Shown here in pieces: positions 42,001-45,000 of a stretch of DNA of 64,000 bases. The DNA is taken from NCBI RefSeq assembly GCF_053078305.1, contig NZ_CP166879.1; one strand, written 5' to 3'. The stretch's first letter is position 1, and every line of letters starts with the position of its first letter. Position numbers: made by a program.

Positions 42001-45000
42001 ATGGCTGGATGAAGCGATGCTGACGGGCGAACCTATCCCGCAGCAAAAAGGCGAAGGCGATAGCGTCCATGCCGGGACAGTGGTACAGGACGGTAGCGTT
42101 CTGTTTCGCGCCAGTGCGGTTGGCAGCCATACCACGCTATCAAGGATTATTCGTATGGTGCGCCAGGCCCAGAGCAGCAAGCCAGAAATCGGTCAGCTGG
42201 CGGATAAAATCTCAGCCGTATTTGTGCCGGTAGTAGTGGTGATTGCGCTGATCAGTGCGGCAATCTGGTATTTCTTTGGTCCGGCACCGCAGATTGTCTA
42301 TACCCTGGTGATTGCCACCACGGTGCTGATTATTGCCTGTCCGTGTGCGCTGGGGCTGGCGACGCCGATGTCGATTATTTCCGGCGTCGGGCGGGCGGCT
42401 GAGTTTGGCGTGCTGGTGCGGGACGCCGACGCGCTGCAACGCGCCAGTACACTCGATACCGTCGTGTTCGATAAAACCGGGACGCTGACCGAAGGGAAGC
42501 CGCAGGTTGTCGCAGTGAAAACATTTGCTGATGTTGATGAAGCGCAGGCATTGCGTCTGGCGGCGGCGCTGGAGCAAGGTTCCAGCCATCCATTGGCACG
42601 AGCGATCCTTGATAAAGCAGGCGATATGCAGCTGCCGCAGGTCAACGGTTTCCGCACATTGCGCGGGCTGGGCGTGAGCGGTGAAGCTGAAGGTCATGCG
42701 TTATTGCTGGGCAATCAGGCGCTGTTAAATGACCAGCAAGTTGATACTAAAGCGATTGAAGCAGATATTTCAGCTCAGGCATCGCAAGGGGCAACGCCTG
42801 TGCTGCTGGCGGTTGACGGGAAAGCGGTAGCCCTGCTGGCTGTACGCGATCCGTTGCGTAGTGATAGCGTGGCGGCGCTGCAACGTCTGCATAAAGCGGG
42901 ATATCGTCTGGTGATGTTGACCGGGGATAACCCAACCACCGCCAATGCGATCGCCAAAGAAGCCGGGATTGATGAGGTGATAGCCGGGGTGCTGCCGGAC
43001 GGTAAAGCCGAAGCGATTAAACGCCTGCAAAGTGAAGGACGTCAGGTGGCAATGGTGGGCGACGGCATTAACGACGCGCCAGCGCTGGCTCAGGCGGATG
43101 TCGGCATTGCGATGGGTGGCGGCAGTGATGTTGCTATTGAAACCGCGGCGATTACCCTGATGCGCCATAGCCTGATGGGCGTTGCGGATGCGCTCGCTAT
43201 TTCCCGCGCAACGCTGCGCAACATGAAGCAGAACCTGCTCGGCGCGTTTATCTACAACAGCATCGGTATTCCGGTTGCCGCCGGTATTTTGTGGCCGTTT
43301 ACTGGAACACTGCTTAACCCGGTGGTTGCCGGAGCGGCAATGGCGCTCTCGTCGATTACCGTAGTGAGTAACGCCAACCGGTTGCTGCGGTTTAAACCGA
43401 AGGAATAAGTACGTCATTGCGGATGCGCTGCTTTAGGGCGGCGCATTTGGCATCGACGCATGACTGCCGGATGCGGCGTGAACGCCTTATCCGACCTACG
43501 GTTCAGGCACAGGTTTGTAGGCCTGATAAGACGCGTAAGCGTCGCATCAGGCAATGGTGCTCGGATGCCGGATGCGGCGTGAACGCCTTCTCCGGCCTAC
43601 GGTTCAGGCACAGGTTTGTAGGCCTGATAAGACGCGTAAGCGTCGCATCAGGCAATGGTGCTCGGATGCCGGATGCGGCGTAAACGCCTTATCCGGCCTA
43701 CGAGATGAAGCGATGTTTTGGCCTTACGCGACCTTTTTTGCACGCTCTTCACGGCGTGCCAAATATTCAGCCACTGTTTCAATCCGTCCCAATTCTTCCT
43801 GGGTACGCATGTTGTTTTCAACTTCCCAAAGATCAACTGCCGCCTGGAGGTTTAGCCAAAAATCGACTGTGGTATCAAAAACTTTCGCCAGACGGAATGC
43901 CATTTCAGTGGTGAGTTTACGATTATTATTGATCAGTGTACTGACGCTATTACGATGAACATGCAGCAACTCTGCTAACTCATTGATTTTCAAAGCGAGC
44001 GGTTCCAGATATTCATAGAGAAGAATATCTCCGGGTGTCGTCGGTTTTCTTGTTGCCTGTTTCATAGTTTTTAACTGTTGCTTCCCTGTGAATAGCGATA
44101 CAAGAACATACTGAATCATACAAACACATTAAACAAGTTCCCAACTCCATTTGCGCCATCCCTCCCCGCGCGCTAGCATGATATTTCACAAAGGGAGGTC
44201 GTATGGATCTGTTGTACCGGGTAAAAACGCTTTGGGCCGCGCTGCGCGGTAATCATTACTCCTGGCCTGCCATCGATATCACCCTCCCCGGCAATCGCCA
44301 TTTTCATCTGATTGGCAGTATTCATATGGGTAGCCACGATATGGCTCCCCTGCCCGCCCGTTTGCTCAAAAAGCTCAAAAACGCCGATGCGCTGATCGTC
44401 GAGGCGGATGTTTCCACCAGCGATACGCCTTTTGCTAATTTGCCTGCCTGCGAGGCGCTGGAAGAGCGTATTAGCGAGGAGCAATTACAAAATCTGCAGC
44501 ACATTAGCCAGGTGATGGGCATTTCTCCGTCACTCTTTTCTACCCAACCGCTGTGGCAAATCGCGATGGTTCTTCAGGCGACGCAGGCACAAAAACTGGG
44601 GCTGCGGGCAGAATACGGTATCGATTACCAGTTATTGCAGGCGGCGAAGCAACAACATAAACCCGTGATTGAACTGGAAGGGGCGGAAAACCAGATTGCC
44701 ATGTTGCTCCAGCTCCCTGACAAAGGACTGGCGCTGCTGGACGATACGCTGACCCACTGGCATACCAACGCACGGTTGCTGCAACAAATGATGAGCTGGT
44801 GGCTGAATGCGCCGCCGCAAAATAATGAAATAACGCTGCCCAATACGTTCAGTCAGTCGCTGTACGATGTGCTGATGCATCAGCGAAATCTCGCCTGGCG
44901 GGATAAATTACGCGCCATGCCGCCGGGGCGATATGTGGTCGCGGTCGGTGCACTACACCTGTATGGAGAAGGGAATTTGCCGCAAATGTTGCGCTAAAAA

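Follow-up and report, generated by a model that had tools for sequence, protein, structure and literature searches.

A five-palindrome BIME-2 with a 101-bp period between the convergent copA and ybaQ genes of Escherichia coli

REP (PU) units are imperfect palindromes of 30–40 nt with a GTAG near the foot of the stem and a mismatch within it (PMC3333891). Catalogues of their composite elements in E. coli, the bacterial interspersed mosaic elements (BIMEs), go back to the early 1990s, and one more array of this kind matters little in itself. Two classes are relevant here. A BIME-2 is made of alternating Y and Z2 palindromes, 2–12 in number, joined by short linkers in tandem and polymorphic in length among strains, whereas a BIME-1 is a single pair of Y and Z1 separated by a long L linker with an IHF site (PMC3333891; PMC1187871). 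The linkers are conserved within a locus and differ between loci (PMC3333891). The closest described system is REP325, the yjdM–yjdN BIME-2 of K-12 and the source of naRNA1–6 (Rfam RF02564), which has been described as Y, Z2 and a linker l (Qian et al., PMC4550694). Another close system is that of the REPINs, REP doublets that form hairpins and are mobilised by RAYT. We describe below an array of this family in the window, a stretch of 64,000 nucleotides of an E. coli chromosome (NZ_CP166879.1), and compare it with these systems and with the same site in other genomes.

Anatomy and family of the copA–ybaQ array

The gap between copA and ybaQ spans 315 bp (43409–43723) from stop codon to stop codon, and the array lies wholly inside it and fills most of it. 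An earlier note on this DNA had placed the repeat downstream of copA; this is correct, the open reading frame upstream being copA and the next gene the convergent ybaQ. The latter is intact, and its product is identical with K-12 YbaQ at 111 of 113 residues. Tandem Repeats Finder reports a repeat at 43465–43702 with a period of 101, 2.4 copies, 97% matches, no indels and a score of 455, and a separate repeat search finds three copies spaced by 101 and 101 bp. Both confirm the REP-containing tandem repeat that had been noticed within 43410–43705, and the repetition is far beyond chance. The unit length of about 118 bp given earlier is wrong, since the period found by Tandem Repeats Finder is 101 bp. 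The two full units, 43465–43565 and 43566–43666, differ at only 2 of 101 positions and are near-identical, as had been stated; they are, however, followed by a third Y palindrome, so that the array comprises five palindromes in all and not two units alone.

The order is Y–Z2–Y–Z2–Y in alternating orientation, with a degenerate hairpin upstream of the array (Table 1). One unit is the sum of a Y palindrome, a tail-to-tail linker, a Z2 palindrome and a head-to-head linker (35 + 17 + 37 + 12 = 101), and the last Y ends 22 nt before the ybaQ stop codon. All five palindromes, 35 or 37 nt long, have the tetranucleotide GTAG/CTAC and a mismatch inside the stem, and the stem of Y1 is weakened by a G>A change. 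Singly, the palindromes are predicted to fold on either strand into hairpins of −15 to −22 kcal/mol. Alternatively, neighbouring palindromes can pair with each other into a double hairpin of 84–89 nt with a predicted energy of −41 to −50 kcal/mol, and this arrangement appears in the plus-strand fold of lowest energy for the whole region. The fold z-scores of the whole region are −7.75 (plus) and −7.17 (minus).

Table 1. Features of the copA–ybaQ locus. Positions are those of the window unless another sequence is named; fold energies are predictions in kcal/mol.
Feature	Position	Strand	Remarks
copA	40904–43408	+	834 aa; from the ORF list; so annotated in every RefSeq E. coli genome that matches
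Conserved hairpin (no canonical REP)	43418–43452	+	RNA fold −21.2 (+), −13.4 (−)
Y1 REP palindrome	43465–43499	− (GTAG first on −)	pattern match and fold, −15.3 (+), −18.2 (−)
Tail-to-tail (S-type) linker	43500–43516		GGTTCAGGCACAGGTTT, 17 nt
Z2a REP palindrome	43517–43553	+ (GTAG first on +)	37 nt; fold −21.9
Head-to-head (l-type) linker	43554–43565		ATGGTGCTCGGA, 12 nt
Y2 REP palindrome	43566–43600	−	fold −17.5/−20.1; in naRNA4 match 43520–43597
Second S-type linker	43601–43617		identical to the first
Z2b REP palindrome	43618–43654	+	identical to Z2a
Second l-type linker	43655–43666		identical to the first
Y3 REP palindrome	43667–43701	−	last element; fold −21.3/−20.9; in naRNA4 match 43621–43698
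ybaQ	43724–44065	−	113 aa; HigA-family antitoxin-like regulator; RefSeq annotation; intact, convergent with copA
428-bp replacement	L010 3010–3437		strain Z0117EC0051 (NZ_CP098210.1); corresponds in site to 43409–44200 of the window

These properties are those of a BIME-2. The array is extragenic, its palindromes have the REP form, their orientation alternates with 17-nt tail-to-tail and 12-nt head-to-head linkers, and the copies stand in tandem with a number that varies among strains while the linkers are conserved at the locus. The alternation of Y and Z2 was judged by the match to the elements of REP325, with an identical Y core and 36 of 37 positions shared in the Z palindrome; because the palindromes match Y and Z2 elements elsewhere in the genome, the identification stands. 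REP325 itself shows the same alternation of Y and Z2 and the same 17-nt tail-to-tail linker, but has a period of 100 instead of 101 bp, a head-to-head linker of 11 instead of 12 nt, and 12 palindromes instead of five. Its linkers, GGAGGGTGCGGGAATTT and GTCGGCACCGT, are unrelated to those found here, and it lies inside a co-directional operon, whereas the present array lies between convergent genes. The pairing of adjacent inverted REPs into one long hairpin is shared with the REPINs, although a REPIN is a single doublet and the copA–ybaQ array a tandem of several units.

A BIME-1 (RIP, or RIB) likewise places inverted REP palindromes at the 3′ ends of genes. It is, however, a single Y and Z1 with a long IHF linker, whereas here the Z palindromes are of the long Z2 type, the linkers are short and the units are in tandem; the IHF consensus WATCAANNNNTTR has no match in 43409–43723, and a BIME-1 is rejected on these grounds. 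Other non-BIME readings can be raised from the regular spacing of the palindromes and from mechanical open reading frames that cross the array, for instance 43417–43683 (plus strand, 88 aa). A CRISPR array is rejected because the would-be spacers of 12 and 17 nt are identical between units. A coding repeat is rejected since the gap holds no annotated coding sequence in any RefSeq genome examined, and the frames across the array are therefore regarded as non-coding. Nor is the array an artefact of assembly, because the identical 315-bp allele occurs in K-12 and in many independent complete genomes. Taken as a group, readings of the array as something other than a BIME-2 have a negligible chance of being right.

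The comparison with the K-12 copA–ybaQ sequence, which the earlier note had pointed to, settles the identity of the locus. In MG1655 (NC_000913.3 508560–508874) the same site holds a BIME of 315 bp with the same five palindromes and the same linkers, and the two gaps differ by 9 substitutions without an indel. Three of the differences fall at the G/A position of the Y loops; another makes the stem of Y1 weaker in the window, and a further one does so for Z2b in K-12. The element is thus already known, is present at the same place in the reference genome and is ordinary; the earlier description of an ordinary extragenic element of E. coli holds, the type being a BIME-2 of Y and Z2 REPs. We are highly confident in the overall reading, namely that the array is a BIME-2 of five palindromes with a 101-bp period, the same element as that of K-12, and that stabilisation and insulation of 3′ ends is the likeliest of its local effects.

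The only Rfam matches on the array are to naRNA4 (RF02564), a model built on one REP325 unit with a gathering score of 59.5 bits. On the minus strand the model matches 43621–43698 with 89.3 bits and 43520–43597 with 81 bits, so that both units exceed the gathering score, and on the plus strand it matches once with 63.6 bits. Such scores would agree with the array being a source of naRNA4-like small RNAs (77 nt, Z2–linker–Y) that bind HU, bridge cruciform DNA and condense the chromosome, the role proposed for REP325 (Qian et al. 2015, PMC4550694). However, the model also matches two unrelated BIMEs of the window, at 50756–50833 and 8747–8824, which argues that it recognises pairs of Y and Z2 generally and not a particular locus. 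Moreover, three negative results come from a 2026 preprint whose group counts the original senior author among its members (10.64898/2026.03.23.713779), and this preprint weakens the idea of chromosome compaction through HU and naRNA. We give the naRNA explanation a very small chance of applying to the copA–ybaQ array.

Besides the array, the window contains three other REP or BIME loci, at 8690–8830, 50753–50836 and 62115–62221. Two of them are Y/Z2 pairs above the naRNA4 threshold, and the third resembles Z1 plus Y and is possibly a BIME-1.

Copy-number alleles and rearrangements at the locus

The length of the gap varies widely among genomes. It measures 57 bp without any palindrome in EcPF14 and 2015C-4136CT1, 113 bp with one Y in CRE10 and Escherichia sp. 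MOD1-EC7003, 214 bp with three palindromes in O157:H7 86-24, 315 bp with five in the window, K-12, TUM18780 and 1504D004, 416 bp with seven in G5, and 618 bp with eleven in BKQ37E and 2824. Among the alleles fetched, all gap lengths of at least 113 bp follow 113 + 101n. Alleles were counted in 59 E. coli chromosomes, sampled systematically at regular intervals along the ranked list of matches: the gap was 113 bp in 14, 214 bp in 13, 315 bp in 10 and longer than 315 bp in 2, the 57-bp allele without a BIME was found in 13 (about a fifth), and the remaining 7 had no annotated ybaQ under the match. Three alleles from these seven were fetched and all are without ybaQ, the loci L009 and L010 among them; the match in H81 has the span pattern of the ybaQ-deleted locus L007. 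The steps of 101 bp also provide a ready marker for typing by PCR.

The junction of the 17-nt linker is specific to the locus. An exact-word search found it in 2188 of 5426 genomes, at a median of one and a maximum of eight places per genome, and strain 2824 has all of its five at the copA locus. Among close relatives of the window (99.0–99.3% identity over 16 kb) the gap is either 315 or 214 bp, which indicates that the copy number shifts on short time-scales. REP and BIME sequences are non-autonomous and are believed to spread by means of the REP-associated tyrosine transposase (TnpA-REP, or RAYT). Unequal recombination or replication slippage between the near-identical 101-bp units probably alters their number, and the copA–ybaQ locus is a length polymorphism in E. 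coli.

As for the relatives themselves, the best complete RefSeq E. coli match to positions 36000–52000 of the window reaches only 99.3% over 16 kb, with 1504D004, ES5 and A16 as the nearest strains and O145:H28 next. Across the BIME the closest is TUM18780 (L002 1975–2317), at 99.5% over 1.3 kb; its ybaQ is frameshifted, whereas that of the window is intact.

In E. whittamii, where ybaQ is missing, the hairpin is followed at this site by Y, a linker, Z2, a second linker and part of a Y, and both linkers are recognisably those found here. The presence of the element in this species implies either that it predates the diversification of E. coli or that it crossed between species by recombination. 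The 57-bp allele departs from the BIME-bearing alleles directly past GGCGCAT, a sequence within the 3′ arm of the copA-proximal hairpin, and rejoins them at the ybaQ stop codon, which is TAG in the former and TAA in the latter. By these points of divergence, 19 nt have been exchanged for at least 75 nt, and the two forms are not related by a clean insertion.

A further allele lacks the array altogether. In 347 of 5426 E. coli genomes (~6%), the BIME and ybaQ, that is, the segment between copA and ybaP, are replaced by a sequence of 428 bp (Table 1). This sequence holds a dispersed repeat of ~270 bp with about three copies per genome, K-12 included. The repeat corresponds to the published TRIP1e, which Li et al. 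2024 (PMC10888264) place 38 bp past copA and 124 bp upstream of ybaP, showing also its involvement in chromosomal rearrangements. The 428-bp segment also gives a weak match to the Rfam TwoAYGGAY RNA, with 31.5 bits, under the gathering score of 43.

The series of 101-bp copies, the deletions of ybaQ in L007 and L009, the allele without a BIME and the TRIP1e replacement, all at one locus, bear out the earlier suggestion that such elements can mark hot spots of recombination. The accompanying suggestion of a hot spot for transposon insertion has a basis in the general literature, in which IS1397 and IS621 are documented to target REPs (PMC1525189), but no insertion sequence was seen in the copA–ybaQ BIME among the alleles read from the genomes examined.

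Independent deletions of ybaQ adjoin the BIME (L007 3160–3462, L009 3010–3180, L016 7250–7500). The one in L007 extends into the last Y palindrome, which it cuts short at a GCG microhomology. A gene for a RelE/ParE-family toxin adjoins ybaQ in all 13 of the sampled alleles without a BIME, and is annotated as frameshifted in both of the BIME-less loci that were fetched (L005, 894–943; L011, 1944–2245). The BIME-bearing alleles, including those of the window and K-12, have lost this toxin gene, and their gap between ybaQ and ybaP is 137 bp (44066–44202 in the window). The association of toxin loss with the presence of the BIME may reflect shared ancestry only, or may be a real link.

Possible roles of the array

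No intrinsic-terminator-like site, that is, a GC-rich hairpin followed by a run of T/U, occurs on either strand in 43300–44300, which leaves the hairpins as the only obvious 3′-end structures of the two genes. Transcription entering from either side would yield RNA folded into single hairpins or into the double hairpins of paired neighbours. Such structures would block 3′-to-5′ exonucleases and attenuate read-through, by which the array would act as a bidirectional stabiliser and insulator of the 3′ ends of copA and ybaQ. As its likeliest local role, the array would shield the two mRNAs from degradation and curb read-through. What the sequences themselves show is the anatomy of the array, its family, its identity with the K-12 locus and the polymorphism of its copy number; protection of the mRNAs, attenuation, the binding of gyrase and a mobilisation by RAYT are drawn from the literature. 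The 2026 preprint shows REP325 to be a dual terminator and stabiliser, and links REPs situated between convergent genes with raised expression of both; the same work finds no significant genome-wide difference in the half-life of REP-associated genes, which counts against a stabilising role (10.64898/2026.03.23.713779). For copA and ybaQ, the supplements of that preprint contain one non-significant differential-expression row for copA and no REP-specific entry, and the RepRanger paper mentions neither gene.

Any function for the host must be dispensable, since about a fifth of the sampled chromosomes have no BIME at the site and others have no ybaQ. The free variation in presence, absence and copy number among strains would be expected of a selfish or neutral array of REPIN-like doublets, maintained and amplified by RAYT and slippage and tolerated between the ends of two genes. 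Adjacent Y and Z2 palindromes can form the long hairpin typical of REPINs, and the substitutions between the window and K-12 are non-compensatory, some of them breaking stem pairs. TnpA-REP needs the GTAG and the stem mismatch for binding (PMC3333891), and each palindrome has both; the CT dinucleotides in the iREP/linker, a further sequence requirement for putative recognition and cleavage by the transposase, are also present. On the other side, the recurrence of the same linkers at this site in E. whittamii means that the element has persisted across species, and REPs are reported to be associated, across the genome, with patterns of expression (10.64898/2026.03.23.713779). A purely selfish or neutral array is possible, though we doubt it, and such an origin does not exclude the BIME-2 explanation with its local 3′-end effect.

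Alternatively, the main role could be that of a site for binding and cleavage by DNA gyrase, which would remove the positive supercoils arising between convergent copA and ybaQ. BIME-2 elements are reported as gyrase targets (Espeli and Boccard 1997; PMC1475751), and the position between convergent genes is confirmed here. Nevertheless, strains without the BIME manage without the array, and we consider gyrase action unlikely as the main role. As a second role beside 3′-end protection, a gyrase site between converging transcription units is plausible.

A further proposal is that the number of 101-bp units serves as a heritable and quickly mutable dial for the survival of the mRNA of ybaQ and of copA, a gene of copper efflux, and for convergent read-through; in a variant of it, strong copper-induced transcription of copA would give rise to copper-responsive small RNAs derived from the REPs. 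Were the number of units such a dial, the alleles of 113, 214, 315, 416 and 618 bp would be functional variants of expression and not neutral, but we see only a small chance of it. The natural allelic series, from none to at least eleven palindromes beside the inducible copA, could be used to test the terminator and stabiliser model of REPs.

The copA-proximal hairpin and other features of the window

The hairpin at 43418–43452 begins 10 nt past the copA stop codon. Its 3′ arm resembles the head of the Z2 palindrome at 12 of 15 positions, and it can be counted as a partial member of the repeat at 79%. Every allele that retains the native flank next to copA has it, those without a BIME included, and in the latter it is a perfect stem of 9 bp (CGGATGCGC/GCGCATCCG). 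The TRIP1e-replacement allele L010 is without it, its sequence being unrelated from the first base past the copA stop codon. Scanning the genome collection with a pattern for the hairpin returned only two records, from Escherichia sp. MOD1-EC7003 and from E. whittamii; for the representatives of other species such a pattern is probably too strict. The real, native 3′-end structure of copA may be this hairpin and not the BIME. According to one proposal, palindromes within 15 nt of a stop codon stall terminating ribosomes (PMC12306157), and the copA hairpin falls inside this distance; that it might act in this way on copA is speculation.

A 13-nt repeat, TTGCGGATGCGCT, occurs inside copA (43182) and again at 43417, and is treated as a chance match. 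Further afield, alignment with strain 1504D004 shows that positions ~36000–38077 of the window carry the end of siiEA, a giant gene for a BapA-related adhesin (~20 kb in that strain), and a gene for a TolC-family outer-membrane protein upstream of ybaT. This island is absent at this position of K-12. Rfam also matches the small RNA sroB (ChiX) at 44996–45079 on the minus strand with 82 bits and the dnaX programmed-frameshift element at 58756–58820 on the minus strand with 97 bits, both of which are expected in this region of the chromosome.
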